A program made the translations under genes and the position numbers. Source: an uncultured Mycoplasmatota bacterium (GTDB lineage: Bacteria > Bacillota_I > Bacilli_A > RF39 > UBA660). From it: a stretch of 64,000 nucleotides of DNA. Of this stretch, positions 7,240-48,574 are shown in pieces (the stretch's first letter is position 1; the number at the start of each line of letters is the position of its first letter). The stretch lies in NCBI GenBank assembly GCA_948465965.1, contig CAOJYR010000003.1, forward strand, positions 8,660 to 72,659, in the 5' to 3' direction. The notes under the pieces were generated by a model, which did not search any database, was not told the origin of the DNA, and was given only the letters and a program-made list of their open reading frames with translations.

Positions 7240-9144
7240 TTAATTTAATAGTAATCTTATCGTTCCTTGATCTTCTAATTTTTCTCCTGCTGCAGGAGAT
7301 TGTTCTACAACTTTATCTCCATTTCCAGAGTATTCTATTGTGAAATTTGGCAGTAGTTTTTTGGCTTCTTCTACACTTTTTCCCACTACATTTGGTACTT
7401 TATAAGTTACTTTGTCTGTCCATTCCAAATCTTTTTCCATTTCGCCTTCTTGTTTTTCAATACCTAAAGCATCAATTATATCTAGAAGAATACGTCTTGC
7501 GATGGGTGTTGTTGTATAACTTGATAAAAGGGCTGTGTTTTTTGGATTATCAATAGCTAGGTAGAAAACGGCTTCTGGATCATTTGATGGAACTACTGAC
7601 ATAAACGACATAATGTAGTTTCCTACCATATATTTCCCATCTTTTACTTTTTGGGCTGTTCCTGTTTTTCCTCCTATCCTATATCCTTCAATATATGCAC
7701 TTTTTCCCCCACCTTTTGCAACTACACTTTCTAATGCATGACGCATGATCGCTGATGTTTCACTGCTTATTACTTTTCTAACCTGGGTGGTACTGTACTC
7801 TTTGATAATAGTATTTGTTTCCTTTTCGGCGATATTTTTAACTATATAGGGTTTATTTAAGTACCCTCCATTTACTACAGCAGATACTGCGGTTACTTGT
7901 TGAATTGGGGTGACACTTACTCCTTGTCCAAAGGCTGTAGTTGAAAGTTCAACATTTCCAACCTTATCTAAATTAAAGATGATTCCTTCTCCTTCTCCAT
8001 TTAGATCAATTCCAGTTTTTTCTCCAAATCCAAATTTATCAATGTAGGAGAATAATCTTTCTTTGCCTAAAAGTTGGCCTAATTTTACAAATCCAGGGTT
8101 ACAAGAATTTTGTAATACTTGAAGGAAAGTTTGTTCACCATGACCTCCAGCTTTCCAACATTTTAATATTGATCCATCTACATTAACGCTTCCTGGATCG
8201 TAGAAATGATCTTTTTCTAGGTCCACTACTTTCTCTTCTACAGCTGATGCAGTTGTAATTATTTTAAATGTTGAACCAGGTTCATAAGATGACCAAATGG
8301 GAAGATTACGACTCAATGTTTCTTGTGAGAAATTTTGATAATTATTTGGATCATAGTCGGGGCGAGAGCCCATACCTAAAATCTCTCCAGTTTTTGGATC
8401 CATTACTATTGCAAGAGCCATATCTGGTGAAAACATGTCTACAATATTATCTAGTTCTCTTTCTAGGGACTTTTGAATATTTATGTCAATTGTTAAGGTT
8501 AGATTCATCCCATCTTGTGGCTCTACGTATAAATCAGATAAATTTAGTTTATTTCCTTTCGCATCAGAGAAATATTTTATGGCTCCACTTTTTCCTGTTA
8601 AATATTTATCATATTGAAGTTCTAACCCAGACAATCCTTGATTATCTATACCAACATAACCTAGGCTATGAGATAATATATTTCCATATGGATAATACCT
8701 TTTTGCTTCTTTTACAAGATATACACCATCAAATTCTAGGGCAGCAATTTTTTCAGCTATATCATATGATAATCTTCTTCCTTCAGGATGTACTCTTTCA
8801 ATTGATGTCTTTTTATAGACGTGTATTTTCATCTCTTCAAAAGTGACGCCCAAAATATCTGCTAACTTTTGAGTAACCTCCTTTTTATTTTTAATTTGAT
8901 TTGGTATAAGTACAAGGGATGTTGTCGTTAGGTTATCAGCAAGTACTACACCATTCCTATCTAAAATTAGTCCACGATTTGCCTCTATTGGTAGATCTCT
9001 ACTCCATAAATCAGATGCATACTTATTTAGTTTCTTATAATCAATCATTTGGATATAGAATACTCTTAGAATAATAAATATAAATAGTAATAACATAATT
9101 AAAAATAATAGTTTAATTCGCTCATCAATCTTTTTAAAAAACAT
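7240..9144 (-). CDS. spoVD: Class B penicillin-binding protein with a single C-terminal PASTA domain (SpoVD-like transpeptidase)
   Basis: N-terminal TM anchor and PBP dimerisation domain. Transpeptidase motifs are STFK (SxxK), SCN (SxN) and KTGT. One PASTA domain (VPNVVGKSVEEAKKLL...) at the C-terminus. Confidence 0.8.
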   Translation of the reverse strand: MFFKKIDERIKLLFLIMLLLFIFIILRVFYIQMIDYKKLNKYASDLWSRDLPIEANRGLILDRNGVVLADNLTTTSLVLIPNQIKNKKEVTQKLADILGVTFEEMKIHVYKKTSIERVHPEGRRLSYDIAEKIAALEFDGVYLVKEAKRYYPYGNILSHSLGYVGIDNQGLSGLELQYDKYLTGKSGAIKYFSDAKGNKLNLSDLYVEPQDGMNLTLTIDINIQKSLERELDNIVDMFSPDMALAIVMDPKTGEILGMGSRPDYDPNNYQNFSQETLSRNLPIWSSYEPGSTFKIITTASAVEEKVVDLEKDHFYDPGSVNVDGSILKCWKAGGHGEQTFLQVLQNSCNPGFVKLGQLLGKERLFSYIDKFGFGEKTGIDLNGEGEGIIFNLDKVGNVELSTTAFGQGVSVTPIQQVTAVSAVVNGGYLNKPYIVKNIAEKETNTIIKEYSTTQVRKVISSETSAIMRHALESVVAKGGGKSAYIEGYRIGGKTGTAQKVKDGKYMVGNYIMSFMSVVPSNDPEAVFYLAIDNPKNTALLSSYTTTPIARRILLDIIDALGIEKQEGEMEKDLEWTDKVTYKVPNVVGKSVEEAKKLLPNFTIEYSGNGDKVVEQSPAAGEKLEDQGTIRLLLN

Positions 9145-9239: not shown

Positions 9240-10070
9240 TTACCCAAGCATACTATATAGGCTTATAGCATCTTTTAATATTAGTGCAATAACTATATAG
9301 GCAATTAATATTACTGATAGAAAGCAAGCTGTATGATAATATATCTCATAATCTTTTTCTTCGAAGTTCACCTCTTCATTTACTTCTTTTGTAAAAATCA
9401 AAATTGAATAAATCAATCCAGCTATGCCTGTTAGTGTACCAAGTGGTGAATAGATAAGAGATAGAATAGGGCCTAATAGACTACCACATATAATGGCTGG
9501 AATCATAGATGTTGAAGTTATTCCTACTAATTTCATATAGTTTGCTTTCTTTTTAGCGATTAGATTTCCTATATAATAGATTCCTGCTATGGCAAAAATA
9601 GCTATTATAATAAAGATAAATGTTTTTAATGTTACATCTGTCCATTCAATATATTTTAATCTTGTAAAGTCTATCTCTACTTTATCAGTAAAATAACTTT
9701 TTTGGTATACTGTGTTAATTACTGTTTTTATTAAGTTTAATACCATTATTAATACTGAAGTTATTACTGAAAGTATAATTGCATTTTTTGGTACTTGTAG
9801 TTGCTCATGCTCTTTCTTATATGTTTTTATTGGCTTTAGAATGGTCTCTATCATAAATTTAAAATAGTTTAAATCAGAGTTATTGGTATTATTACTTATT
9901 ACTTGCTCTTGGTTTAGCCCTATGTTACTATTTACTACCTTTCCTGTAGTTATATTAGCATTCATATTGTTGTTCTCTACTGTTGATGGTGTATTCATTA
10001 ATGGATTTCCACATTTAATACAAAAATTAGTATTACTTCCATTTTCTTGTCCACATTTGTTACAAATCAT
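9240..10070 (-). CDS. Zinc-ribbon domain membrane protein (N-terminal CxxC...CxxC followed by a polytopic, Yip1-like membrane domain)
   Basis: MICNKCGQENGSNTNFCIKCGNPL zinc ribbon, then a linker, then four hydrophobic helices. Confidence 0.55.
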   Translation of the reverse strand: MICNKCGQENGSNTNFCIKCGNPLMNTPSTVENNNMNANITTGKVVNSNIGLNQEQVISNNTNNSDLNYFKFMIETILKPIKTYKKEHEQLQVPKNAIILSVITSVLIMVLNLIKTVINTVYQKSYFTDKVEIDFTRLKYIEWTDVTLKTFIFIIIAIFAIAGIYYIGNLIAKKKANYMKLVGITSTSMIPAIICGSLLGPILSLIYSPLGTLTGIAGLIYSILIFTKEVNEEVNFEEKDYEIYYHTACFLSVILIAYIVIALILKDAISLYSMLG

Positions 10071-10150
10071 AACATTTCCTCCTTAATTATATATATAGTA
10101 TAACTAGATAATTTATTTCTTGTCTATGCTTATTTTTTTAAAGTGTAAAA

Positions 10151-11047
10151 TTATTGTAAAGCCTTTGTTGCTAGTTTTCTTATAGCCTCCTTTGTTTTAG
10201 CTGTTGCGATAAATCTGTTGGAGTGACAGAATATTGCTCCTTTTACTCCTGTTACTTTTTCTAGTTCGCATCCAGAAAGACCTGCCCATTTTTCTGGGAG
10301 TAGAAGTCTATCTGTTTTATCATCAAGAGATTTTGAAATCGTTTTTATCGCATATCCACCTCGATTAGAGGGATAGATTGCAAATACTATATTATCTGCT
10401 TTTTCATTCGTTAAGATTGCTTCTTCATAAGGCATATATTCATCTAGCTCTAAAACTACTCCATCAGTTTCTTCTATCAAATTGTTAACAATAGATTTGG
10501 CCTTTATTTTTCCTATAATATTATATAAAGTTTCCATAAATATTTCTTTAGCAAACTCCTCAGCTTTTAAAAATTGACTATTCTCATTTTCTTCAGTAAA
10601 AGAACTTGGATTAAAGATTTTTATCACGTCACTTAAAGTTTTTACTTTATATGGAGCATCAATATCTGGGAATATTCCATTATCAATAGCGTCTAGGCCT
10701 TCAATTAATTCTTTATCCATGGCTTTAAAAACTTCTTCTATATTTTCTACTTTTTCCTTTTGTAGAAAACTTTTTCCGAATTCCTGCCATAAAAGCCCAA
10801 TTGATGAATATTTTATACCATTTTCTCTAAGCTTTGCATCTTCTTGGTGATGATCGTATTTTCCCCTACCAATATCATAAATGATGGCATCCTTATTTAT
10901 ATTTCCATTTATATTTGCAACTCTTATCACCTTTATATCTTTTAAATAGACTTCCAAAAAAGCAGTAGCAAATACTTCGTCAGCATGCATTGTCCCATTA
11001 TGAGTAATACAGGTAGCTTCTTCTACTTTTGTTACTAATTTTATCAT
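10151..11047 (-). CDS. MYG1/UPF0160 family metal-dependent protein hydrolase
   Basis: N-terminal ITHNGTMHADEVFATAFL matches the MYG1 family signature (THxGxFHxDE). Length about 300 aa. Confidence 0.75.
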   Translation of the reverse strand: MIKLVTKVEEATCITHNGTMHADEVFATAFLEVYLKDIKVIRVANINGNINKDAIIYDIGRGKYDHHQEDAKLRENGIKYSSIGLLWQEFGKSFLQKEKVENIEEVFKAMDKELIEGLDAIDNGIFPDIDAPYKVKTLSDVIKIFNPSSFTEENENSQFLKAEEFAKEIFMETLYNIIGKIKAKSIVNNLIEETDGVVLELDEYMPYEEAILTNEKADNIVFAIYPSNRGGYAIKTISKSLDDKTDRLLLPEKWAGLSGCELEKVTGVKGAIFCHSNRFIATAKTKEAIRKLATKALQ

Positions 11048-11171
11048 TTTGTACCTCTTTTCTTTTTTTCATTATACACTATTTTTATTTTTTTGTGTAA
11101 AGTCTTTTATTCTATTCATTTATTTTATTTCTTAAGTGTTATAATAGTATTGTTTATAATGAGGTGATATT

Positions 11172-13763
11172 TTGTATAAGAAAAGTATAGAGGATGTTTT
11201 TAAGGAGCTTAATTCGTCTAAAAATGGATTAAATGACAAACAAGTTACAAGAAGAAAAAAGGAATTTGGTAAAAATAAAATAGAAGATAAAAACCAAAAT
11301 AGTAAATTAAAATTATTTTTAAAACAATTTGATGATATGATGATTAAATTATTATTGGTTGTAGCAATTATTTCTGCTGTTTATTCTTTTTTTTCTGGAG
11401 AACCATTAACTGATACTATTTTAATTATTTTAATTGTTGGGCTTAATGTTTCTATGGGATATATGCAGGAAGTAAAGGCAGAAGCATCTATTAAATCACT
11501 TCAAAAAATTGAAAGAGCCTCTTGCAAAGTTAGAAGAGGTGGTAAGGATTTAATGATTAATGTGGAAAATTTATTACCTGGGGATATCTTATATTTAGAA
11601 GCTGGTAATAAGGTTCCGGCTGATGCTAGAATTATTGAATGTAGTAATTTGTATGCAAATGAGTCCTTACTTACTGGCGAGAGTGAAGCTGTTTTAAAAA
11701 ATAGTAATATAATAGAAGAAGATGTATTAATTAACGATAGATATAATATGGTTTATTCTGGATGCGATATTACTGGAGGGCGTGGTATTGCGATTGTTAC
11801 AGCGATAGGTTTAAATACAGAACTTGGTAGAATTGCTGATGCTTTAACGAAAAAGAAGGATGTTCCTACTCCTCTGCAGAAAAAAATCACAGAAATTAGT
11901 ACTACTCTTACAAAGTTAGTATCCATAGTTATTGTTTTTGTAATTATCTATAATTTATTTATATTAAAGAATAGTTTAATTAGTGTAGTCATGCTTGCAA
12001 TTAGTTTGATGGTATCGGCAGTTCCTGAAGGACTTCCTGCTGTTATTACCATTTCCCTATCTATAGGAGTTAATGCTATGGCTAAAAAAAGAACCATTGT
12101 TAGAACTTTATCCTCTGTTGAGACTCTTGGAAATGTGGAAGTTATCTGCTCTGATAAGACGGGAACAATTACACAAAATAAGATGACTGTTACTAAATTA
12201 TTTAGGAATGATGTGTTATTTAATCAGGATGATTATAAATATGATAAGAGTGATTTATTAATTAAGTCGATGCTATTAGCTAATGATAGTAGTTATATAA
12301 AAAATAAGTTAGTAGGAGACCCTACTGAGGTTGCTCTCATTGAATGTTGCATTAAAAATAAAATTAACTACACCAAAATGTTAGAGGAAAATAGGCGCAT
12401 TGACGATGTTCCTTTTGATTCTACTCGAAAAATGATGAGTGCATCCTACACAAATGGACGTGAGATGATGCTTTATTCAAAGGGAAGTCTGGAGTCTATA
12501 TTAAAATCGAGTAAATATTATTTATGTAATGGTGAAGTTCTTTCATTAACAAAAAAGAAGAAAGAAGAATTTTTTCAGATTGAAAAGGATCTTTCTAGTA
12601 ATGCATTACGAGTTATCGCTTTTGCTTATAAAAAAGGTGCTGACTTAAAGGAAGAGGATTTAGTATTTGTGGGAATGGTTGGAATGATTGATCCTCCAAG
12701 GGAAAGCGTTTATGATGCTATAAAGGTTTGTAAGACGAGTGGGATTGTTCCTATTATGATTACAGGAGATAATTTAACTACAGCAATGGAAATTGCAAAG
12801 CGTGTTGGGTTAACTGCTGATGCTACTAGGGGTATTGAAGGAAAAGATATTGCAAGGCTATCCGATATGGAGCTTGCCGAAGTTGTTTTAGATTATAGTG
12901 TTTATGCTAGAGTTTCTCCTGATGACAAAGTTAGGATTGTTAAGGCATTGCAAAATAATAGTAAGGTTGTTGCAATGACGGGGGATGGTGTTAATGATGC
13001 TCCAGCAATAAAACTTGCTGATATTGGTATAGGTATGGGTAAAGGGGGCACCGAGGTTACTAAAAGTACTGCTGATATTTTATTACTTGATGATAGCTTT
13101 TCTACTATCATAGATGCGAACTATGAAGGAAGACGAATCTTTGATAACATCAGAAATGTTATTATCTACTCTCTTTCTAGTAACTTTGCGGAAATATTTA
13201 TTGTTGTTGCGGGAATGTTTTTATCAGTAAATGCCCTACTTCCTATTCATATTTTGTATATAGATTTAGTTACTGATGCAGCACTCGCCATTTGTCTTGC
13301 TTTTGAAAAGGCTGCTAAGGATATCATGCTACGACCTCCAAGAAAAAGCACAAGCAAGTTCTTTACACCTTGGGTTATTGCTTCCTTAGTATTCTCTGCT
13401 TTCCTTGAAGGTATGGTCGTACTTTTATGTTTCCTTGTCGGAATGAATTATGGTGTTGGAGTTGCACAAACTATGGCATTGCTTTGCTTGATTATTCAGG
13501 AAACACTATATGCTATTAACTGTCGTAATTTAAAAGATCCTATTTATAAACAGGGCTTCTTCTCTAATAAATATTTAAATATTGGGCTTTTTCTAATTAT
13601 CATAGTTCAAGTGTTAACGTTTATTACTCCTGCTAGAGATTTACTTCATATAGAAACGTTAAATTTTGGTCAAGTTGGTTTTGTTTTTATAGTTAATATT
13701 ATTTTATTTGGTCTTGTAGAAATTTCTAAAATTGTTATTAAAAAAGTATTTAAAGATGAATAA
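11172..13763 (+). CDS. P-type (type IIA, SERCA/YloB-like) calcium-transporting ATPase
   Basis: Phosphorylation motif CSDKTGTIT, hinge motifs TGDN and GDGVNDAPA, the PEGLP ion-transduction motif and 10 predicted TM helices. TTG start with a GAGGTGA SD. Confidence 0.9.
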   Translation: MYKKSIEDVFKELNSSKNGLNDKQVTRRKKEFGKNKIEDKNQNSKLKLFLKQFDDMMIKLLLVVAIISAVYSFFSGEPLTDTILIILIVGLNVSMGYMQEVKAEASIKSLQKIERASCKVRRGGKDLMINVENLLPGDILYLEAGNKVPADARIIECSNLYANESLLTGESEAVLKNSNIIEEDVLINDRYNMVYSGCDITGGRGIAIVTAIGLNTELGRIADALTKKKDVPTPLQKKITEISTTLTKLVSIVIVFVIIYNLFILKNSLISVVMLAISLMVSAVPEGLPAVITISLSIGVNAMAKKRTIVRTLSSVETLGNVEVICSDKTGTITQNKMTVTKLFRNDVLFNQDDYKYDKSDLLIKSMLLANDSSYIKNKLVGDPTEVALIECCIKNKINYTKMLEENRRIDDVPFDSTRKMMSASYTNGREMMLYSKGSLESILKSSKYYLCNGEVLSLTKKKKEEFFQIEKDLSSNALRVIAFAYKKGADLKEEDLVFVGMVGMIDPPRESVYDAIKVCKTSGIVPIMITGDNLTTAMEIAKRVGLTADATRGIEGKDIARLSDMELAEVVLDYSVYARVSPDDKVRIVKALQNNSKVVAMTGDGVNDAPAIKLADIGIGMGKGGTEVTKSTADILLLDDSFSTIIDANYEGRRIFDNIRNVIIYSLSSNFAEIFIVVAGMFLSVNALLPIHILYIDLVTDAALAICLAFEKAAKDIMLRPPRKSTSKFFTPWVIASLVFSAFLEGMVVLLCFLVGMNYGVGVAQTMALLCLIIQETLYAINCRNLKDPIYKQGFFSNKYLNIGLFLIIIVQVLTFITPARDLLHIETLNFGQVGFVFIVNIILFGLVEISKIVIKKVFKDE

Positions 13764-34891: not shown

Positions 34892-35011
34892 ACTAACGTC
34901 TCCTCTTTTAATGAGCATTATTCTACTACAGGAAATTCTAAAAGTCAATTTTTTCTAATATTAAAAGCTACACCCCTGATGTAGCTTAATTTGTATTTTA
35001 TTACTTCGTTA

Positions 35012-36385
35012 TTATTCCACTATGTAAGGACTTGTTGCTGTTCCATCACCTGATGTGTATTTAGTCCCTGCTTTTAAAGATAACATGGGCCGCACCCCAT
35101 ACTGAAACGATGAAACCGGTGAAGATGATAATTTCCCGTTATTTGTAACTATGTAGTTGTTTAAGGAACTCGAAATCTGAAATGGTGTATTTGTCCAAAA
35201 ATTACTTCCTGTTGTTAAGTATGATGAGGAATCACCATTAACACCATTTCCAGCAAGTGTCGCTTCATCTGCAGTAATTAATCCTACTGGATATGTTAAT
35301 AAACCATTTCCATTTTCTGTACTGACAGTAAATTTATCTGTATTATTTACATACTCAAGATTTGGTGAATATGTAGTATTATTTCTATTATATCCGTTAA
35401 ACTTAAGGCTTGCGGTACCCATATTCATAGAATTAGGGGTATCTTTATCAAAACCACCATATGAAAATATAGATCTATCATTATACCATATGGCATCTTC
35501 CAATTGATCTGTATAATTATTAAGAAATTCGAGATACCACTCGTCAAGGAATTTTTTTATTGTTGATGATGTATCTTGTGTGTATGTGTCTCCCTTTACC
35601 ATATTTTGTAACGTAAGTAATGGTTGACCATTTTCAAGTGGTATCTCATAAGAGTATAATGTTCCTCCTGCATTTAGTACATATATCATATAATAGACTG
35701 GATTACAATTATCACTAGTGGAATGACAAGTATAGTGATACTTACTACCAATAGTTGCATAGTCGGTAGCCCATCCATTCGTTGAAGTAAAAGTATCTGA
35801 CAGCGTATAACCTCCGGCCCCCGTATAAGATGCTGAATTACCATATATTACGCCAATACTTTCACTATTAGCTATTGGTCTACTAGTAATAGAATTGGCC
35901 TTACCATAATACATATAACCATTTTGAGTAATTATTGGTCCTGGAGCGTTATATAAACTCTTTCCTGCTTGACTAGCTTCACCTGTATTATTACAACTTC
36001 CATCCGCTGCAGGTGTTCCATTATAAATTAGTTTTACTCCACCAGTTTCGGTAGTCCTTACTATCTTCCAACAAAAATTTGCAAACTTAACATTATTGTT
36101 AGTAACCTCTCCTCTATAATAATAAACTGGATTAGTGTTATCTTTGGTGCTATCCATTTCGTATATTCCGGCTGTTATACTAGGTGAGGAAAAGTCAATA
36201 CCAGTATCTAAAGTTGAATTTCTTGCCATTAGATTATAAATTGTTTTATCTTTTTTTACTGTAACCTTACCATTGAAAGCTAAAGAGGAACTTAGGTATG
36301 CATACCCTAATCCTAAACTAATAAATAGGACAAACATTATAATTACATAGATTTTCTTTTTATTTAATATATTTATTCTATTCAT
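35012..36385 (-). CDS. Secreted protein C (457 aa) with a SipW-cognate-type signal peptide (…LGLGYA|YLSSSL). The mature domain is unrelated to proteins A and B.
   Basis: Its N-terminus shares the KK-hydrophobic-G-Y-A/S-(A/Y)-L-S pattern of the two neighbouring paralogues. This resembles the TasA/CalY signal peptides (GGGTWA|AFND, GGGTFA|YFSD). It lies in the same operon orientation as the SipW-like gene. Confidence 0.55.
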   Translation of the reverse strand: MNRINILNKKKIYVIIMFVLFISLGLGYAYLSSSLAFNGKVTVKKDKTIYNLMARNSTLDTGIDFSSPSITAGIYEMDSTKDNTNPVYYYRGEVTNNNVKFANFCWKIVRTTETGGVKLIYNGTPAADGSCNNTGEASQAGKSLYNAPGPIITQNGYMYYGKANSITSRPIANSESIGVIYGNSASYTGAGGYTLSDTFTSTNGWATDYATIGSKYHYTCHSTSDNCNPVYYMIYVLNAGGTLYSYEIPLENGQPLLTLQNMVKGDTYTQDTSSTIKKFLDEWYLEFLNNYTDQLEDAIWYNDRSIFSYGGFDKDTPNSMNMGTASLKFNGYNRNNTTYSPNLEYVNNTDKFTVSTENGNGLLTYPVGLITADEATLAGNGVNGDSSSYLTTGSNFWTNTPFQISSSLNNYIVTNNGKLSSSPVSSFQYGVRPMLSLKAGTKYTSGDGTATSPYIVE

Positions 36386-36405
36386 AACTATTCCTTTCTA
36401 TATAA

Positions 36406-37656
36406 TTAATAATTCATCATAGTCTTTGGCACTTCTATTACTGGGCGAACTCCATTTCCGCCCCAAGTACTTCCAGCGGTTAAGATGCTATTGGGACGCG
36501 TTACTATATAAACATAAGAGCTATTACCTTGATAATTTTCTAGCCAATATCCAATAAGTGCACCCTCGGCTGGGATATTCTCTAATAGATATTTACAATC
36601 ATCCAAAGTTACGTTTCCATAATCATCGGTTCCTTTACATACTTTTTTCACCTCTTGTAGAGTTATGAGTCTTGCGGCATAACCTTCATAACTAAAGTTA
36701 TTTACTTTCACTTCTCCATTTTCATTTATTATATCCCTTGTTGTATTTGATAAGCTTATATTGGTCCATTGCGTTGTCGTTGGCAGTTGTTTCATTGCAG
36801 TTTCTGGTCCTCGTAATGATCCTACTGTATTATATGGAAAGTGATCTGTATTATTTGGCATTCCTGATGATACATTGCTGTAATAGATTAATGTTGCATA
36901 ATTATTATTCGTATTTAAATCAGTAATATAATAGAATCTTTCTGTAGCAGAATCATATATACCATCCCCATTCACATCACAGTCAAAGGCGTCGCCACCC
37001 GCTAATGTTCCTATGTTACCTAAAGATCCATATGTATTATCTCCAGAGACGTGTAGCGATGTTGCCCTTTTGCATACAGTGTGTGCTACTGCTAAAGCAC
37101 TATCGTCAGCTTGAACATATATTAAGTTTAGTTGTAACTCTAGATATTGATCTTCTCCTGGTAAATCAGCGGCAGTAATATCGTCTTTATATTTTACTTT
37201 TACCTTTACCGTATCTTTTGTTGTAGCCTTTAATAAATCTTTTTCTTTAATAAGGGTACCATCTGCATATGTTACAGTATAATCAAGAAATCTTGATTGG
37301 TCTTCTGTTAATCCTGTATTAACCAAGCTTCCTATCATAGCATCTATACTTCCTGCATTAACAACATCTATTGTAAACTCGTAAAAATCCCCTGGATTTT
37401 CTAGTGCAACTTCAAAATTTACTAAGGTGGAATTGTTTTCTATAGTAGAAGTGGCTGCAACGCTTCCCTCTGTTGGAATTAAATTTTCAAAGTGAACATC
37501 CCAAGTGGATTTCGTAATTGTAGTTGTTCCAGAAATACTTAATGTACTGTTTAGGTATGAATAACCAACACCTATTAAGATTGATAGAACGAATATAAAA
37601 CTAAGATATATATTTTGCTTACTATATCTAATTAAATTTTTTCTTCTTATTCTCAT
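36406..37656 (-). CDS. Secreted protein B (416 aa). It has a TasA/camelysin-like N-terminal domain paralogous to protein A plus a C-terminal extension, with a SipW-cognate signal peptide (…IGVGYS|YLNSTL).
   Basis: After the predicted cleavage site it aligns with protein A over about 170 aa, for example TKSTWDVHFENL and LENPGDFYEFTIDVVNAG. This echoes TasA LKPGDKLTKDFQFENNG. Confidence 0.55.
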   Translation of the reverse strand: MRIRRKNLIRYSKQNIYLSFIFVLSILIGVGYSYLNSTLSISGTTTITKSTWDVHFENLIPTEGSVAATSTIENNSTLVNFEVALENPGDFYEFTIDVVNAGSIDAMIGSLVNTGLTEDQSRFLDYTVTYADGTLIKEKDLLKATTKDTVKVKVKYKDDITAADLPGEDQYLELQLNLIYVQADDSALAVAHTVCKRATSLHVSGDNTYGSLGNIGTLAGGDAFDCDVNGDGIYDSATERFYYITDLNTNNNYATLIYYSNVSSGMPNNTDHFPYNTVGSLRGPETAMKQLPTTTQWTNISLSNTTRDIINENGEVKVNNFSYEGYAARLITLQEVKKVCKGTDDYGNVTLDDCKYLLENIPAEGALIGYWLENYQGNSSYVYIVTRPNSILTAGSTWGGNGVRPVIEVPKTMMNY

Positions 37657-37673
37657 TATTACAACTCCTCTTT

Positions 37674-38363
37674 TTATATAATTTCATCAAATTCTTCTTG
37701 TTCTTCTTTTGGTACAGATTCTATTATAGGGCTATTTATATTTTTTATCTCTTCATCTATAGTATTAGTAGAATTGTTTTCTTCTATGATTTCTTGCTCT
37801 ATGGGGGTATTTACTTTTAAATATTTTTCATCTATAACATTTAGAGAGGTATTTGTTTCTAACAACTTTGCACTTCTTGCATTATCAATGAGATTTTCTA
37901 TATTCTCCTTTCTTCCTTTAATAAATGCTTCAATGGGTAATTCCTCTTCTTTATTTAACTTTAATATATATACACATGCATCTTGATTATCTAATAATAT
38001 AAAAATACAATTATCTTCACTTGTTTTATAATATATAGGTTTCCTTATTTCTACTGAAGCATCAATCATATCTTCTATGTTTGTTATTAACATAATATTT
38101 TTATCTTCAATATTAGGTGTAGTGCTAGTTTCTACTAAAATAGCATCATATTTTTTTAGTATTTGCTTCAATTCATGATTGTATTGAGATTCCTCATCAG
38201 TCTTTTTCAAAATGCTTGATAACAGTATGATAAATAATATAACAGTTAATGTTATAAATATTATTGCATATCCCGTTAAATTATTTATCAGTAAATAATA
38301 CGATAACCCTAGCGAGGCTAAAATCATTATTAAATTCATTATAATTTTTGTTGTTTTCTTCAT
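37674..38363 (-). CDS. Hypothetical membrane protein (2 TM plus a cytoplasmic or extracellular domain), in the same operon as the SipW-like peptidase
   Basis: Two N-terminal hydrophobic helices followed by an acidic C-terminal domain. It occupies the position TapA holds in tapA-sipW-tasA-type operons, but is not recognisably similar to TapA. Confidence 0.4.
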   Translation of the reverse strand: MKKTTKIIMNLIMILASLGLSYYLLINNLTGYAIIFITLTVILFIILLSSILKKTDEESQYNHELKQILKKYDAILVETSTTPNIEDKNIMLITNIEDMIDASVEIRKPIYYKTSEDNCIFILLDNQDACVYILKLNKEEELPIEAFIKGRKENIENLIDNARSAKLLETNTSLNVIDEKYLKVNTPIEQEIIEENNSTNTIDEEIKNINSPIIESVPKEEQEEFDEII

Positions 38364-38379
38364 ACCTTTTTACTCCTTT

Positions 38380-39543
38380 TTATTTTATTTTTTCTGAAAA
38401 GTAGATACTTGGATATGCTATATATGGAATTTTAAATTTTACAATTCCTTTTATATCCTCTAGTTTTATATCAACATTATCCCTAGTGTTGTTAGCATCT
38501 CCTTTGGTTCTATAATATACATTGCTTCCCTTTTTTTCAATTTCTACTAATCTATGTACTATATTTTTCCCATTATTATTATAGACTATAACAATTCCTT
38601 CTTTTAAATCCTTTTTACTTTTTATTTTTTCAACGATTACAGCATCACCTTTATTTATTTTTGGAGTCATAGATTCTGAACCTATTCCTATTATATAATG
38701 AGGAAAATAACCTGAAACTAGGCAAACTAATAATAATATAAAGGCTATGACTGGGATATCTGTTACTTTAAAGATATTTTTTTGAAATTCATATTCTACT
38801 CCATTATTGTGTTCATTAATAATTCTAGAGGCGTATATATAAATGATAAATGGTAGACAAATCCCAATCATCGAATTTAAATATTCTCCTAAATTTGGAA
38901 CGATTGGCATTACAAATACATATAGATCCATTACAAGTCTATATATTAGTGCAGGTTTATAACCAGTGTGCAAAGTTAGGTAGCTTAACACACAGTTTTT
39001 TACTATTATGGGCAAAACAATAGAGGCTGATATTTTAAACACTTCAGCTAAATCATTAAAATTTATTGTTTTAATACTTGTTGATAGTTCCAATAGTATA
39101 ATTGCTATAGTAATTAATATGATAATTTTTTTACTGTTTTTATTTGATTTTATTGTGATATATCTAAACAGTTCTGTTGCAATTATTATTATAATGGGCG
39201 CAAATATATTATTTATAATCGAATACAGAGTTAATGAATATGAATTTTTTAGATAACCTACAATTAATCCAATACCATAAGAAACAGAAAAGAATAGCAA
39301 GATTTGTGTTAGTGTGATTATATTCACTTTCTTTTTTGTAGGTGTTATTTTGTCTTTTTGAAATCCTAGTAAATGGATACCTATAAAAACAAAAATCATT
39401 AATACAGCTGCATTAATAAACTCTATATATTTTAGGAAATTTTCTACTATAAATAATCTATATATTATAATATAGATTACTAATGCCATTATCAAGATAT
39501 AATTCTTTATCTTTTTAGAATTAGTCATAATATCCACTCCCAT
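38380..39543 (-). CDS. sipW: Archaeal/ER-type signal peptidase I (SipW-like catalytic domain) fused to an 8-TM N-terminal membrane domain of about 290 aa
   Basis: The C-terminal ~95 aa carry the motifs IGSESMTPKINKGDAVIV (SMxP catalytic Ser), IVHRLV (His) and TKGDANN (GDN). The preceding ~290 aa are 8 hydrophobic helices not found in canonical SipW (about 190 aa). Confidence 0.65.
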   Translation of the reverse strand: MGVDIMTNSKKIKNYILIMALVIYIIIYRLFIVENFLKYIEFINAAVLMIFVFIGIHLLGFQKDKITPTKKKVNIITLTQILLFFSVSYGIGLIVGYLKNSYSLTLYSIINNIFAPIIIIIATELFRYITIKSNKNSKKIIILITIAIILLELSTSIKTINFNDLAEVFKISASIVLPIIVKNCVLSYLTLHTGYKPALIYRLVMDLYVFVMPIVPNLGEYLNSMIGICLPFIIYIYASRIINEHNNGVEYEFQKNIFKVTDIPVIAFILLLVCLVSGYFPHYIIGIGSESMTPKINKGDAVIVEKIKSKKDLKEGIVIVYNNNGKNIVHRLVEIEKKGSNVYYRTKGDANNTRDNVDIKLEDIKGIVKFKIPYIAYPSIYFSEKIK

Positions 39544-39630
39544 TTGATTGTTATTGTTCTTATATATACTAAAAAAATTTAGTATATATAAGAAAAAAAC
39601 AAGATACTGTTCATATGATTAGTAGCTGTT

Positions 39631-40173
39631 TTATCCCTGAATAAAGTTCATAGCAAATGTTAATTCAACATTTTGAGGTTCTGTTGGCAGTTGATCTGCT
39701 GCTACATTTTTGTTATATTCAACCCTTACTTTTAATGTTTTCTTAGCGCCTGATGCTAATGCATCGTTTGCTTGAACTGGTGTACCATCACTATATGTTG
39801 CTGTATAATTCGTATAAACCTTCTGATCAGTTGATAGTCCTGCTAGTGTTGGAGTAGTAGCTATTTTAGCAGGAATAGTTCCACCATTTTTAACATCTAC
39901 TGTAAATTCATAGAAATCACCAGGTTTTTCTAATGTAACGGTATAATTGATGTTTGTTTTTTGCCCATCTACTGCAGCTTCTGTTGTTGCTTCTACACTA
40001 CCAGTAGTTACTTGAAGGTTCTCAAAATGTACATCCCAACTCGATTTTCCAATTGTTGTATTACCAGTAATATTTAATGTAGCTGATAAAGCAGCATATC
40101 CAATGCTTATTCCTACAACTAACAATAATATTGCTATGATTACATAATTCTTTTTTTCTTTTTTATTATCCAT
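39631..40173 (-). CDS. Secreted protein A (180 aa), a TasA/camelysin-like putative fibre subunit with a SipW-cognate signal peptide (…ISIGYA|ALSATLNITG)
   Basis: Start trimmed to MDNKKEKKNYVII with an AAAGGAGA SD. The mature domain (SSWDVHFENL...LEKPGDFYEFTVDVKNGG) is paralogous to protein B. Confidence 0.55.
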   Translation of the reverse strand: MDNKKEKKNYVIIAILLLVVGISIGYAALSATLNITGNTTIGKSSWDVHFENLQVTTGSVEATTEAAVDGQKTNINYTVTLEKPGDFYEFTVDVKNGGTIPAKIATTPTLAGLSTDQKVYTNYTATYSDGTPVQANDALASGAKKTLKVRVEYNKNVAADQLPTEPQNVELTFAMNFIQG

Positions 40174-40305
40174 CTTATTCTCCTTTCTATTATGAATATA
40201 TAATATCATTTCCATTATATCTAGTCAACTGATAAGTTAAATTGTTTATGGCTATTATACATAGATTTTACTTTTTTTTAATTATAAATAGTGAACAATT
40301 TATAA

Positions 40306-45454: not shown

Positions 45455-46930
45455 TTACTCTTTAATCTTTTTTTCTTTTTTATTATAGATAAAATAACTT
45501 ATTATTGAAACTATTACTACTATCAATATCATAGCAATAATTATTATAACCGAATTAGTTTCAGGATTTTTTATAATATTGTTTATAATTCCATCGTTAT
45601 TTGAATCATCATTCGTAATATGGTATTTAGTAACTGAATATTTCATATTTTCGTCATAAAATTGGGTTTGAAATGTAGCTTGACAGGTTCGATATAATTT
45701 TACTGGAGTATTTAAAGCAATTGCTATTACTTTATCATTTTCTTTGTAAAAGATTGCACGTCTTTGAACATTTTCAAATCCATTAATATTTCCTACAGTG
45801 TAAAATATATCTAAATTATTCTTTTTACTATCAGTCATATTTTCTGTATACTTATGAATTGATGAATTATAAATCATAGTTTCGTTAGTAGAATCTAGTG
45901 TATATAAGTAAACTTCATTATCAATATAATCTAGGTCTGAGGCTAGTGTATTTATATTCTTTTCAACTTTACCATCTTTGTTAATAAAAATTGTACTACT
46001 TCCTGATGCAATATATCCATTATTAACCTCAATAATTTTGTTTATACTCTCATAATTTGTACTGCCATTTTTTGAATATCCACTATATTTAACGTAATAA
46101 TCATAGCTAATTTTTGTTTTACTTGAATCTATATATTTAAAATCCTTATCAAATTTTACAACACTTAATGCATAATCATATTTATCTTCCGATGCGTATC
46201 CGTTATTTTGTGTATCACTATATTTATAGACAACCAAGCAAATAATATTATCATCTTTTGTTTTGTTGATTGCTATGATTCTTGCTTCATGATAAAAGGG
46301 ATGTGTACAAGCACTTATATTTGTATTTAAAACGTTTGTCAACAAATCATTCCCATTTAGATAGCTAACAAAATTACCTTTTTTATCTATTTTAGCAATG
46401 ATTTTTTGATTGACATAACCAATGTCAACCCCACTGTTATTGTAGTTGGATTGGGCATATACTCGCTGTTTGCTATATGGAAATAGTATACCATCAGATA
46501 ATTCTATAATATTTTCTGTATAAGCTGTAGTTACATTAGAATTACTTGAATCTTTTAGATAATCCTTTTGCCATACTATATTTCCATTAAAGTCATATTT
46601 TGTAACATTTGAAGGATATGAATGCCATATTAATAACCCATCGTCTAATGCTTGTATCCTTGTTCCAGTTATTTTGTCCTTTTGCCATACTATATTTCCA
46701 TTAAAATCATATTTTGTAATGCTTGATGCTATATCTGCATTAGAACCCTCTACTTGCATTACGACAAAACCATCTTTTTGCTTTATTATTTGTGTGTCTG
46801 TAGAATCATAAATATTTAGTTCTTTACTCCACTCCTTTTCTGCCTTTGCTTCTACTTTTATGGTAGATATTATCAAAAACGCTGATGCTATTAATACTAT
46901 AATTGCTAATCCTCTTATTTTCTTATTCAT
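45455..46930 (-). CDS. Class B sortase substrate. It has a signal peptide, PQQ-like beta-propeller repeats (KYDFNGNIVWQKD twice) and a C-terminal NPETN sorting signal followed by a TM helix and a KKEKK tail.
   Basis: C-terminus reads …IIKNPETNSVIIIIAMILIVVIVSIISYFIYNKKEKKIKE. An N-terminal signal peptide is present. It is a paralogue of the 49667..51133 gene. Confidence 0.65.
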   Translation of the reverse strand: MNKKIRGLAIIVLIASAFLIISTIKVEAKAEKEWSKELNIYDSTDTQIIKQKDGFVVMQVEGSNADIASSITKYDFNGNIVWQKDKITGTRIQALDDGLLIWHSYPSNVTKYDFNGNIVWQKDYLKDSSNSNVTTAYTENIIELSDGILFPYSKQRVYAQSNYNNSGVDIGYVNQKIIAKIDKKGNFVSYLNGNDLLTNVLNTNISACTHPFYHEARIIAINKTKDDNIICLVVYKYSDTQNNGYASEDKYDYALSVVKFDKDFKYIDSSKTKISYDYYVKYSGYSKNGSTNYESINKIIEVNNGYIASGSSTIFINKDGKVEKNINTLASDLDYIDNEVYLYTLDSTNETMIYNSSIHKYTENMTDSKKNNLDIFYTVGNINGFENVQRRAIFYKENDKVIAIALNTPVKLYRTCQATFQTQFYDENMKYSVTKYHITNDDSNNDGIINNIIKNPETNSVIIIIAMILIVVIVSIISYFIYNKKEKKIKE

Positions 46931-47044: not shown

Positions 47045-48574
47045 ATGAAATTAATTAAATTTAAAAATGCATTAACTTATACATTTTATATAACATTTGC
47101 AATAACCTTTACTTATTTATTTGTTTGCACTTTTATATATAAGGTTTCTTATAGTTATAGTTTAAATATGTTTATTTGCTTTATTATTGGAATATTTATA
47201 TTATTATTGTGGTATTTTATTTATAAAGTTATTAATAAATTTTATGACAGACTATCTAGTAAACAACAATTTTTGTTGTTGTTGTTTACTTTTATATTTT
47301 TCTGCTTTCTTATACTAACAATTTTGATTTGGCTGAAGCTAACACCAGATTGGGATTATCGTATAATATATGAACAGGCAAAAAGCTATGCTCTTTATGG
47401 GGATAGAACACACACTACCACTTCTCCTTCTTATTTTCAATACTATAATAATAACATTGGTTTATTTTTAATATTAGCGGGAGTTTTTAAGGTATGTTCT
47501 TTTATAGGAATTAAAGACTTTCTTACAGTGGCGACCATATTAAATGCTCTATTGGTTGGTTTTAGTATCTTTCTTTTATACCTTTGTATTAAGAAATTAT
47601 CAAATAAAAAAAGTGCTTTTTTTTCATTAATAGTAAGCTTATTTTTTATTCCTTTATTTACTTACATTCCTATGTTTTATACTGATACATTTTCATTACC
47701 TTTTGTTATGCTACTATTTTATTTATATTTATCTATTGATAGCAAAAAATTATTATCTAAAAAAAATATTATATTGTTTGCTTCTATTTTATTTGTAGCC
47801 TTTTTAGGAAGTAAAATAAAGATGACTGTTCTTGTTGTTTTTATTGCTTGTTTTATTCATTTTATGTTTACTAGCAAACTTAAATATACATTACTTTTGT
47901 TATTAATTATTACTGCTTTTTTTTCATTTTCATCCGTTCTTTGGGAAAAACTAGTATATGAAAATAAAAGCTTTTCATTTATTCAAAATGAGTATGGGCA
48001 CGTTCCATCGTCTCACTTTTTAATGATGGGTGTGCAAAGAAAGGATGACGATTTGGCTGGAATAAACTGTTTAGGGTGCTATAATCATGATGATTTTAAT
48101 CAAACTTTATTTTATAAGAATAGCAAAGAAGGCGCTAAGGCTGATATTAAGGAATATATTACTAGAGTAAGAGAGTATGGATTTAGCGGATATTTTATTT
48201 ATTTAAGTAAAAAGGCAGTTAATGCTTGGGGAGAAGGAAGTTATTTTAGTAATGTTGTTTATAAATTAAACCTTGCTGAAAATAATATAGCTAAAAAACT
48301 TATTATAGGAGAAGATAATAAAATTATTTTATATTTTCAACAAGGCGTTAGTGAAGCCATGTTGCTTATATTTGGTTGCTATAGTTTTATTATGTTTTTT
48401 AAAAGAAAAAAAATGGACACATCTACAATTATTCTAATCTCTATTTATGGGATGTTTGTTTTACTCTTATTTTGGGAAAATCGATCTCGATATTTATATA
48501 ATTACATACCTATATTTATTACCTTAATAACTTTATTTTACTATAATATAAATAAATTTAAATTAAAAAAATAA
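47045..48574 (+). CDS. Putative GT-C superfamily membrane glycosyltransferase (PMT_2/ArnT-like), copy A
   Basis: About 12 TM helices. The first extracytoplasmic loop carries PDWDYRIIYEQA, an acidic DxD/E motif typical of GT-C enzymes. 509 aa. AAGAGGTG SD. About 75% identical to the 51256..52788 gene. Confidence 0.45.
   Translation: MKLIKFKNALTYTFYITFAITFTYLFVCTFIYKVSYSYSLNMFICFIIGIFILLLWYFIYKVINKFYDRLSSKQQFLLLLFTFIFFCFLILTILIWLKLTPDWDYRIIYEQAKSYALYGDRTHTTTSPSYFQYYNNNIGLFLILAGVFKVCSFIGIKDFLTVATILNALLVGFSIFLLYLCIKKLSNKKSAFFSLIVSLFFIPLFTYIPMFYTDTFSLPFVMLLFYLYLSIDSKKLLSKKNIILFASILFVAFLGSKIKMTVLVVFIACFIHFMFTSKLKYTLLLLLIITAFFSFSSVLWEKLVYENKSFSFIQNEYGHVPSSHFLMMGVQRKDDDLAGINCLGCYNHDDFNQTLFYKNSKEGAKADIKEYITRVREYGFSGYFIYLSKKAVNAWGEGSYFSNVVYKLNLAENNIAKKLIIGEDNKIILYFQQGVSEAMLLIFGCYSFIMFFKRKKMDTSTIILISIYGMFVLLLFWENRSRYLYNYIPIFITLITLFYYNINKFKLKK

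Follow-up and report, generated by a model that had tools for sequence, protein, structure and literature searches.

Genes and features of the locus

The DNA analyzed here is a 64,000-nucleotide stretch, referred to below as the window, from an uncultured Mycoplasmatota bacterium (positions 8,660 to 72,659 of contig CAOJYR010000003.1, assembly GCA_948465965.1). Between window positions 35012 and 40173, five genes encode three secreted proteins, here termed A, B, and C, a signal peptidase that is fused to a membrane domain of eight transmembrane (TM) helices, and a protein with two TM helices, which together form a candidate locus for an extracellular fiber. Gene content, motifs, conservation, synteny, and predicted folds were computed, as was the homology of the locus to AbpX, a donor-strand fiber protein of Pyrodictium abyssi, and to the peptidase encoded beside it. 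The window was also scanned with Rfam at the gathering score and for tRNAs; neither scan returned a match in the 64 kb.

All five open reading frames (ORFs) lie on the minus strand, at the positions at which the preliminary description of this DNA had placed them. In the direction of transcription, they are gene A, the predicted major fiber subunit (39631–40173, 180 residues), the peptidase gene (full ORF 38380–39543, likely 38380–39528, 382 residues), the gene of the two-helix protein, which matches PF17231 (DUF5305; 37674–38363, 229 residues), gene B, a predicted minor subunit (36406–37656, 416 residues), and gene C, a predicted terminal subunit (35012–36385, 457 residues). The start codons that a mechanical ORF call assigns to A (40215) and to the peptidase (39543) are probably wrong, as ribosome-binding sites and homologue lengths favor 40173 and 39528. 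The ORF of A can be extended to the ATG at 40215, but 40173 is the likely start because the ATG there has a AAAGGAGA ribosome-binding site ahead of it and the homologues are 178–184 residues long. For the peptidase, the second ATG, at 39528, is the most likely start because the homologues begin there.

The gaps among the four downstream genes measure 16–20 nt, and the genes are therefore probably transcribed as one operon, with the layout promoter, A, hairpin, peptidase, DUF5305, B, C, and terminator. The promoter-like site (40200–40228, minus strand) consists of TTGACT, a 17-nt spacer, and TATTAT with an extended TG, and it lies ~27 nt upstream of the start codon of A; its score of 10/12 is a consensus match only, and such sites are no commoner here than in shuffled sequence. 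Just 3′ of C, a stem-loop with a 10-bp stem containing four GC pairs, followed by TTAAT (34965–34987, minus strand), is terminator-like and marks the end of the operon. An AU-rich hairpin with a perfect 17-bp stem occupies the gap between A and the peptidase gene (39557–39594, minus strand; ΔG = −23.2 kcal/mol, z = −7.1), and none of the shuffled sequences is equally stable. A similar CUUAUAUAUA...UAUAAG hairpin, together with a second stem of 13 bp, is present in the same gap of one related contig (L003, ~7940–7975), and in another (L004) the gap is 17 nt only. The hairpin may be an attenuator or an mRNA stabilizer through which the amount of pilin is set relative to that of the machinery.

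A shared leader and N-terminal strand in A, B, and C

The N-termini of A, B, and C are rich in lysine and continue into a hydrophobic helix that ends in G-Y-(A/S), followed by (A/Y)-L-(S/N)-(A/S)-(T/S)-L-x-(I/F)-x-G. With an arrow at the predicted cut, the three junctions read IGYA↓ALSATLNITG in A, VGYS↓YLNSTLSISG in B, and LGYA↓YLSSSLAFNG in C. That the three proteins have a G-Y-(A/S) leader in common had been proposed for this locus before, and both the alignment and a six-frame scan bear this out; the scan finds the leader motif exactly three times in 64 kb, in A, B, and C. Similarity between A and B extends further, with 45% identity across all of A, and C has only its first ~45 residues in common with them. 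In A, the leader comprises residues 1–27 and ends in G25-Y26-A27 (40093–40173), the predicted donor strand comprises residues 28–45 (40039–40092), and the β-sandwich domain comprises residues 46–180 (39634–40038), all on the minus strand. The corresponding segments of B are the leader (residues 1–33, ending in G-Y-S), the predicted donor strand (34–51), and an A-like β-sandwich (52 to ~190); those of C are the leader (1–29, ending in G-Y-A) and a predicted donor-strand segment (30 to ~45).

A profile of the A family, searched against protein clusters at 50% identity, retrieves 6258 clusters with E ≤ 0.001 and 1513 with E ≤ 1e-30. From 140 of the 150 best cluster representatives, a strongly conserved signature emerges around the predicted cut. 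Before it, position −3 is Gly in 97%, −2 is Tyr in 88%, and −1 is Ala in 84% and Ser in 10%; after it, +2 is Leu in 80% (Ile in 15%), +6 is Leu in 92%, +8 is Ile in 92%, +10 is Gly in 96%, +14 is Ile or Val in 91%, and +19 is Trp in 93%. Mature position 4 is Thr, Ser, or Ala across the family. Even positions +2, +6, +8, and +14 are thus hydrophobic and +10 is Gly, and the odd positions from +3 onward are polar; this alternation is the pattern of an amphipathic β-strand.

None of the three proteins ends in a hydrophobic tail (C-termini NFIQG in A, KTMMNY in B, and SPYIVE in C). LPXTG signals are absent from A, B, and C, and no sortase is encoded among the neighboring genes, in agreement with the sortase independence that had been suggested for the system.

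Subunit A is a probable remote relative of AbpX

The AlphaFold2 (AF2) model of A (predicted local distance difference test score, pLDDT, 88.8) contains a TM helix at residues 8–22 and a confidently predicted all-β domain, a β-sandwich, at residues 48–179. Residues 23–47, which include the amphipathic extension, have no secondary structure in the monomer and lie outside its fold, as in the TasA superfamily; the N-terminal extension of AbpX is likewise unstructured in monomer predictions (10.64898/2026.01.04.697558). In a Foldseek comparison with the PDB, the best matches of A are CfaB, AbpA (7ueg), the TasA fiber (8aur), PapG, and the Saci_0406 thread (7pnb). Their probabilities range from 0.95 to 1.0, and none has an E value below 2e-3. 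The fold thus suggests a donor-strand pilin. The jellyroll of A is nearest, among solved folds, to filaments of the TasA superfamily, and the TasA likeness that had been anticipated is found in the structure, at modest scores. Sequence searches are less informative: Pfam and NCBIfam return nothing usable for A, B, or C, and searches of PDB sequences with the A profile, with the C-terminal module of B, and with C give chance-level matches only.

For a comparison with AbpX itself, the sequence of P. abyssi AbpX was taken from the supplement of one of three papers on archaeal donor-strand fibers. Aligned with it by hhalign, the A-family profile gives a probability of 76.6%, which supports kinship but is below the usual bar of 90–95%, with E = 2.1e-5 and 27% identity over 137 columns; pairwise BLASTP of A against AbpX gives E = 6e-4. 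In the hhalign register, which is telling, IGYA↓ALSATLNITGNTTIGKSSWDV of A is set against LTYA↓QWSETLSLSA--TISTGSLDV of AbpX, such that the cleavage site and the N-terminal strand of the two proteins coincide. The donor strand seen by cryoEM in AbpX is made by residues W2, E4, L6, L8, A10, and I12 (10.64898/2026.01.04.697558), and the conserved even positions of the A family fall in this register. On the basis of the alignments and the model, we assign A to the TasA superfamily, as a probable remote AbpX-like protein. The locus had been described as of the TasA/camelysin type; the superfamily and the dedicated archaeal/endoplasmic reticulum (ER)-type peptidase stand, and the closest family is probably the AbpX clade and not TasA or camelysin proper.

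A full-length fusion of a signal peptidase and a membrane domain

The C-terminal part of the peptidase (38380–38775 including the stop codon, minus strand) comprises a TM anchor at residues 257–272 and a signal peptidase I domain of the archaeal/ER type. Its predicted catalytic residues are S286 (38671–38673), H325 (38554–38556), and D344 or D350. The motifs SMxP (S286-M287), HR (H325-R326), and GDxN...D (G343, D344, N346, D350) are invariant in 47 homologues, and TIGR02228 matches residues 255–386 with 80.7 bits (cut-off 51.85). The score against the SipW equivalog model NF046067 is 65.6 bits, well short of its cut-off of 190. The assignment of SipW-type catalytic motifs is therefore upheld and that of a SipW enzyme is not; by sequence, the protein is of the same broad archaeal/ER-type class as SipW but is no SipW. 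Among proteins of solved structure, human SEC11A and SEC11C are its nearest relatives in sequence (E ~1e-12), and a scan of genome contigs with the single peptidase sequence matched only a Micrarchaeota signal peptidase, in the catalytic domain.

The fusion is genuine. A total of 1165 homologues were found, of which the best 120 are 357–390 residues long and cover 92–99% of the query, and this rules out that an unseen frameshift has joined two separate genes, a possibility that the preliminary description had raised. Several of the homologues are annotated "signal peptidase I [Bacilli bacterium]", and relatives carry the label "Bacilli bacterium" or "Firmicutes bacterium". The AF2 model of the peptidase (pLDDT 79.6) folds into eight helices within residues 2–241, a ninth at residues 257–272, the catalytic β domain, and a short C-terminal helix. 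The eight hydrophobic helices ahead of the catalytic part are thus as first noted, and the extra part is ~245 residues long rather than ~290, because the ninth helix is the ordinary anchor of the peptidase.

In P. abyssi, the gene that follows abpX encodes a peptidase of 380 residues. The family of the window peptidase aligns with this protein by hhalign over 304 colinear columns (probability 98.9%, E = 2e-17), and the membrane parts of the two enzymes have the small motifs G..GF..N, E..R, and P.IP in common. The window therefore has, adjacent to its AbpX-like gene, a polytopic signal peptidase of the TIGR02228 type with nine TM helices and a short C-terminal helix, as is typical of the AbpX clade. 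Signal peptidases with ten TM helices have been described in association with AbpX in both bacteria and archaea (10.64898/2026.01.04.697558), and the enzyme is for this reason not the novel one for which it was taken.

The N-terminal domain of the peptidase resembles CPBP proteins

The N-terminal domain of the peptidase (residues 1–245, 38794–39528, minus strand) is similar in fold to CPBP/Rce1 proteins, with degenerate motifs. The best structural match of the peptidase model is SpdC/LyrA (6u0o_A; score 13.7, 219/248), followed by SipA (4n31_B; 12.4, 89/135), which matches the catalytic domain, Methanococcus maripaludis Rce1 (4cad_C; 11.1, 210/251), APH-1 (7.8, 153), and TMEM147 (7.3, 151). 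Judged from the model, the extra domain has a CPBP (CAAX protease/Abi) fold. Pfam Rce1-like PF02517 is matched with a nonsignificant E of 3.1, in two of 47 members and in the wrong region, and a PDB profile search at E ≤ 10 returns no CPBP entry; the assignment is accordingly one of fold.

CPBP proteases have the canonical motifs EExxxR, FxxxH, and HxxxD/N (PMC12260438, PMC11980579), of which the first lies in TM4 and the third in TM7 (PMC11980579). These are not found intact in the domain, which has no invariant His in 47 homologues. Its conserved residues are instead an invariant E119-x-x-R122-Y123 in TM4, a near-invariant E147 in TM5, and R197-x-x-x-D201 in TM7, assigned to the motifs by helix order and not by superposition. 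A precedent exists in Staphylococcus aureus, whose signal peptidase SpsB is bound and inhibited by SpbR, a degenerate CAAX-like protein (PMC12260438), and the window enzyme looks, by analogy, like a covalent version of the SpbR–SpsB pair. This precedent leads us to favor a noncatalytic role in docking or gating over a second protease, and the CPBP-like domain is more likely a scaffold or regulator without catalysis of its own. An earlier guess that the extra domain might be a second intramembrane protease thus agrees with the fold and is at odds with the degenerate catalytic motifs. We found no description in the searchable literature of a CPBP–signal peptidase fusion, of the CPBP-fold assignment, or of the SpbR parallel.

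The two-helix protein belongs to DUF5305

The protein encoded next to the peptidase matches DUF5305 (PF17231, E = 1.3e-10, 41.6 bits against a cut-off of 29), over profile positions 117–209 of 217 only, that is, over the C-terminal half. It consists of two adjacent TM helices (~7–26 and 31–52), a cytoplasmic domain, and an acidic tail, and lacks the extracellular β-sandwich that full-length DUF5305 proteins have (10.64898/2026.01.04.697558). At 229 residues, the window protein is longer than its counterparts in L003 and L004 (167–185 residues), and the excess is a low-complexity acidic C-terminal tail (...NSPIIESVPKEEQEEFDEII).

DUF5305 is the TafG of haloarchaeal Tat-fimbriae, where it is a proposed helper of TafD, and it is sometimes fused to signal peptidases (PMC11821415, PMC12337348). 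By analogy, the window protein is predicted to be an accessory subunit of the peptidase. A DUF5305 gene adjoins the peptidase gene in three related contigs (L003, L004, and L005) as well, an arrangement characteristic of AbpX and Tafi loci. From its position, the two-helix protein had been compared with TapA; the DUF5305/TafG match shows it to be no TapA analogue, and no TapA model of NCBIfam matches it at E ≤ 1. The role of a TapA-like initiator that donates a strand fits C or B better.

Subunits B and C and their modular relatives

Beyond its A-like β-sandwich, B carries a Cys-containing C-terminal module of 226 residues (36409–37086, minus strand), possibly an adhesin or cargo domain. The module has four Cys, a CDVNGDGIYDS loop that resembles a Ca-binding loop of the dockerin/EF-hand-like kind, and the end GVRPVIEVPK. 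It has no Pfam or PDB match, apart from a sub-threshold one to Lcl_C (E = 0.17). In L003, a protein of 1333 residues (9752–13753) combines leader, strand, and B-type jellyroll with four tandem copies of this module, each 43–51% identical to that of B (E = 1e-63 to 4e-51). In L004, these parts are divided between two proteins: one of 301 residues (9684–10589), which lacks the jellyroll and has leader, strand, and a single B-type module, and one of 186 residues that is the B-type jellyroll alone. The module thus behaves as a mobile repeat unit, present once in B, once in the L004 protein, and four times in tandem in L003.

C lacks the A-like β-sandwich and has, after the strand, a domain of ~410 residues of unassigned fold, which has no match in Pfam, NCBIfam, or PDB and is unrelated to the module of B (E = 0.19). 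With a strand but no groove, C could sit at one end of a fiber only, and from its sequence it is predicted to be a terminal subunit, at the tip or as the initiator.

Related contigs, which are metagenome assemblies, preserve the layout. Where the peptidases are 63–65% identical to that of the window, the order is an A-like gene of 179 codons, the peptidase, DUF5305, and variable leader-bearing proteins, such that both gene order and fusion are conserved, and the surrounding genes (RecD2, gyrB) differ from those of the window. Just upstream of the A-like gene, L003 and L004 encode a conserved protein of 53–55 residues (...GMAGYMYMKKN...; L003 7091–7252, L004 7184–7351) that is absent from the window, in which the gene of a FAD-dependent protein lies upstream of A instead.

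The combination of leader, strand, and jellyroll recurs in the 6258 clusters in proteins of 170–880 residues, joined to cargo such as DUF285/leucine-rich repeats (LRR), an ALK_LTK glycine-rich domain, and DUF4886. Cargo fusions are seen among the relatives P0241–P0390 and on L008 (149–1702) and L010 (255–3876), with two such genes in tandem on L010; the contigs of cargo-bearing relatives are 2–4 kb long, too short to show whether a peptidase gene lies nearby. One relative, P0241, has three copies of the jellyroll.

Genomic surroundings

The locus is flanked by genes of housekeeping type: on one side those of ComEC, ComEA, and a DHH/DHHA1 protein, and beyond its other end those of two FAD-dependent proteins and FtsW/RodA. 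The GC content of the window is 23–33%. The minus strand carries almost all of the long ORFs, and the cumulative GC skew drops steadily across the window, the behavior expected of a single replichore in a low-GC Bacillota genome. At 45455–46930 (minus strand), a protein of 491 residues with an ordinary signal peptide (...KVEA↓KAEKE), a C-terminal TM anchor, and no Pfam match is encoded, and canonical leaders of the AxA type therefore coexist in this genome with the G-Y-A class. A polytopic membrane protein of 509 residues without a Pfam match is encoded at 47045–48574 (plus strand).

A model for fiber assembly and its alternatives

The explanation that best accommodates these data, to which we assign a probability of about 70%, is that the operon builds a fiber of the TasA superfamily, of the AbpX clade, by donor-strand complementation in a low-GC Bacilli bacterium. 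The cleavage site, polymerization, the order of subunits, and the role of the CPBP-like domain in the following scheme are inferred. A, B, and C would be exported by Sec, each held in the membrane by its N-terminal signal anchor until the dedicated signal peptidase, of the archaeal/ER type (S286/H325/Asp), cleaves behind G-Y-A/S. The new N-terminus would be an amphipathic strand of 14–18 residues in which L2, L6, I8, G10, and I14 form one face, and the freed strand would enter the open groove of the β-sandwich of the next subunit, which would link the subunits head to tail. A would be the major subunit, B a minor subunit with an extra module, and C the tip or the initiator, in a role like that of TapA for TasA. 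The CPBP-fold domain is probably a noncatalytic scaffold that may dock a TM helix, be it the anchor of the peptidase itself, the hairpin of DUF5305, or the substrate's signal anchor, and that may thereby restrict or time cleavage; DUF5305 would serve as a further accessory subunit of the peptidase.

Several observations weigh against this explanation, beginning with the status of cleavage after G-Y-A and of polymerization, both of which we infer. The preliminary description had placed the leaders in the SipW-cognate class and had likened A and B to Peptidase_M73, and neither resemblance is detected by profile: none of the five proteins matches TIGR04088 in an NCBIfam scan at E ≤ 1, and A, B, and C have no match to Peptidase_M73 (PF12389) at E ≤ 1. 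The kinship of A and AbpX is given a probability of only 77% by hhalign. A has L2 and A4 in place of the aromatic amino acid at position 2 and the acid at position 4 that are hallmarks of AbpX, where they belong to a Ca-dependent clamp, and B and C have Tyr at mature position 1. Mature A, with an isoelectric point (pI) of 4.75 and 10.5% Asp + Glu, is less acidic than AbpX (pI ~4.0, ~15%); the values are 4.41 and 12.5% for B and 4.94 and 8.2% for C. Compared with the archaeal peptidase without its catalytic domain, the N-terminal domain gives a nonsignificant E of 0.12, and the homology of the membrane domains is for this reason argued from architecture and colinearity. The neighborhood of the locus in the window contains no LPXTG or S-layer homology (SLH) anchor and no regulator, whether histidine kinase or cyclic di-GMP (c-di-GMP) gene. 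Lastly, thousands of cargo proteins begin with the same N-terminal module, which would also fit a system for display or sorting.

Such a system would use leader, strand, and sandwich as a stalk or sorting module for cargo that is displayed as monomers or short oligomers, with the fused peptidase as sorting enzyme, comparable to sortase, exosortase, or myxosortase with their dispersed substrates. The breadth of the family at 50% identity and its range of lengths, the variety of its cargo, the tandem cargo genes on contigs with no peptidase in view, the lack of an anchor and of a regulator near the locus, and the precedent of myxosortase, a CPBP-family enzyme that acts in sorting (PMC11980579), all speak for general display. 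Yet the most conserved component is the small, cargo-free A, which is always first in the operon, like major pilins; its strand is amphipathic in the AbpX register and unstructured in the AF2 model, and A is probably homologous to a protein that has been solved as a donor-strand polymer. Cargo-bearing members would moreover suit the minor and tip subunits of abpX loci (10.64898/2026.01.04.697558), and at 2–4 kb their contigs are too short to prove that a peptidase is absent. We therefore regard display without fiber formation as rather unlikely. A tentative and on balance improbable variant retains the fiber and makes the fusion, together with DUF5305, a membrane assembly platform and not a simple processing enzyme. 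In this variant, the CPBP-like bundle would grip the signal anchor of the cell-proximal subunit and permit the cut after G-Y-A only when the next anchored subunit offers its groove, such that the fiber would elongate from its base and the last leader, still uncleaved, would keep it tethered. Thousands of cargo proteins with G-Y-A leaders would be handled by this one machine, which would make it a display pathway of usher-like kind, independent of sortase and widespread among uncultured Bacilli.

That the CPBP-fold domain is an active second intramembrane protease, which would clear signal peptides or trim the leader on the cytoplasmic side, as MroQ does AgrD, and would make the enzyme a fusion of two proteases, has in our estimate a low probability. 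The CPBP/Rce1 fold, the strictly conserved polar residues E119, R122, E147, R197, and D201 in helices that bear motifs in the family (TM4 for motif 1 and TM7 for motif 3; PMC11980579), and the existence of active bacterial CPBP proteases such as MroQ and MrtX (PMC12260438, PMC11980579) are in its favor. Without an invariant His, neither FxxxH nor HxxxB can be formed, and in motif 1 only one Glu is left and the spacing is changed (ExxR versus EExxxR); the Rce1-like Pfam match is not significant, the residues are mapped to motifs by helix order, the closest structural match, SpdC, is noncatalytic, and SpbR is degenerate and inactive (PMC12260438). A role of A and B as secreted metalloproteases of the camelysin type (Peptidase_M73) is very improbable and is rejected. 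The relative P0241 does have a near-threshold match to that family (E = 5.6e-4, 20.2 bits, cut-off 22.5), but A, B, and C have none, the alignment of A contains no conserved metal-binding motif, and the solved members of the TasA superfamily are structural filaments. Equally improbable, and likewise rejected, is a reading of the three proteins as type IV pilin-like, with class III signal peptides and a prepilin peptidase, to which the N-terminal hydrophobic helix followed by a conserved motif might point. There is no motif of the G↓F-x-x-x-E type, the hydrophobic helix precedes the G-Y-A cut site rather than following it, the enzyme encoded next door belongs to the Ser/His signal peptidases I (TIGR02228) and not to the aspartic prepilin peptidases, and no genes of the PilB/PilC type occur in the locus and its ten nearest neighbors.

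Relationship to known fiber systems

In terms of overall architecture, the locus is closest to the AbpX loci (10.64898/2026.01.04.697558, a January 2026 preprint, and PMC12518558), which likewise pair a small subunit, with a leader ending in a small residue, an aromatic residue, and Ala, an amphipathic N-terminal donor strand, and a jellyroll, with a neighboring polytopic peptidase of ~380 residues that matches TIGR02228 and is colinear with the window enzyme. Also encoded in abpX loci are accessories of the DUF5305 family, minor subunits that resemble AbpX, and tip proteins (10.64898/2026.01.04.697558). The window differs from them in a strand without the aromatic residue at 2 and the Ca-binding acid at 4, in the lower acidity of mature A, in a DUF5305 protein without the extracellular β-sandwich, in the absence of a nearby anchor, histidine kinase, or c-di-GMP gene, and in its host, a low-GC Bacilli lineage that is not among the Clostridia listed in the preprint; the similarity to AbpX itself is remote (27% identity, probability 77%).

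The tapA-sipW-tasA operon of Bacillus subtilis shares with the window an archaeal/ER-type signal peptidase dedicated to a secreted fiber subunit, and the leaders of TasA and CalY end in an aromatic residue followed by Ala, according to the termini quoted in the preliminary description. TapA is reported to donate a strand to start the TasA fiber (PMC10151520), and C or B could donate the starting strand here in a similar manner. The window peptidase differs from SipW in its score (65.6 against the cut-off of 190) and in its additional domain of eight TM helices, the gene between peptidase and B encodes DUF5305 and not TapA, and A, B, and C lack M73 and TIGR04088 matches. In the tafi locus of haloarchaeal Tat-fimbriae (TafA/E pilins), a signal peptidase I is likewise paired with DUF5305 beside donor-strand pilins, and TafD is needed for TafA processing and fiber formation (PMC11821415, PMC12337348). 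There, however, the pilins carry Tat signals, TafG has a full DUF5305 domain, and in place of the CPBP-like bundle TafD has four TM helices together with a second extracellular domain.

The pairs SpbR–SpsB (PMC12260438) and SpdC–SagB (6u0o) are comparable in that a degenerate CAAX/CPBP-like polytopic protein partners a membrane enzyme, a type I signal peptidase in the case of SpbR and another single-pass enzyme in the case of SpdC. In the window, by contrast, the two parts are fused and the peptidase is of the archaeal/ER Ser-His type, not the bacterial Ser-Lys type of SpsB/LepB; SpbR inhibits cleavage, and no sequence-level similarity of the window domain to Rce1-like proteins was detected. 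Chaperone-usher pili (Fim, Pap, CFA/I) also assemble by donor-strand complementation of Ig-like subunits with an N-terminal extension, and CfaB, PapG, FimA, FimG, and FimI are among the fold neighbors of A. The locus has no periplasmic chaperone or outer-membrane usher and its host is of a Gram-positive lineage, such that this resemblance is possibly one of fold only.

Already known, then, are the TasA, Abp, and Tafi fibers with their dedicated peptidases and the combination of polytopic peptidase and DUF5305 in abpX loci. The window holds a divergent bacterial variant of the latter, with a different strand signature, a truncated DUF5305, no nearby anchor or regulator genes, and an expanded cargo family. 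New here is the occurrence of the leader-strand-jellyroll module in 6258 clusters with varied cargo domains.

Donor-strand fibers of the TasA type are emerging as a cross-domain mode of building the biofilm matrix, and the locus touches on the question of how the secretion, timing, and anchoring of such fibers are managed in systems that have neither chaperone nor usher. It extends the AbpX-type arrangement into a large uncultured lineage of Bacilli and draws attention to a module that has no Pfam family and that Pfam and NCBIfam fail to recognize in A and B. The extra domain of the "ten-TM" signal peptidases becomes readable as one half of a covalent SpbR–SpsB pair, and this points to specific residues. 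If correct, the model would account for the choice of substrates by a dedicated signal peptidase and possibly for the coupling of cleavage to polymerization, and it would give names to thousands of hypothetical surface proteins in metagenomes.

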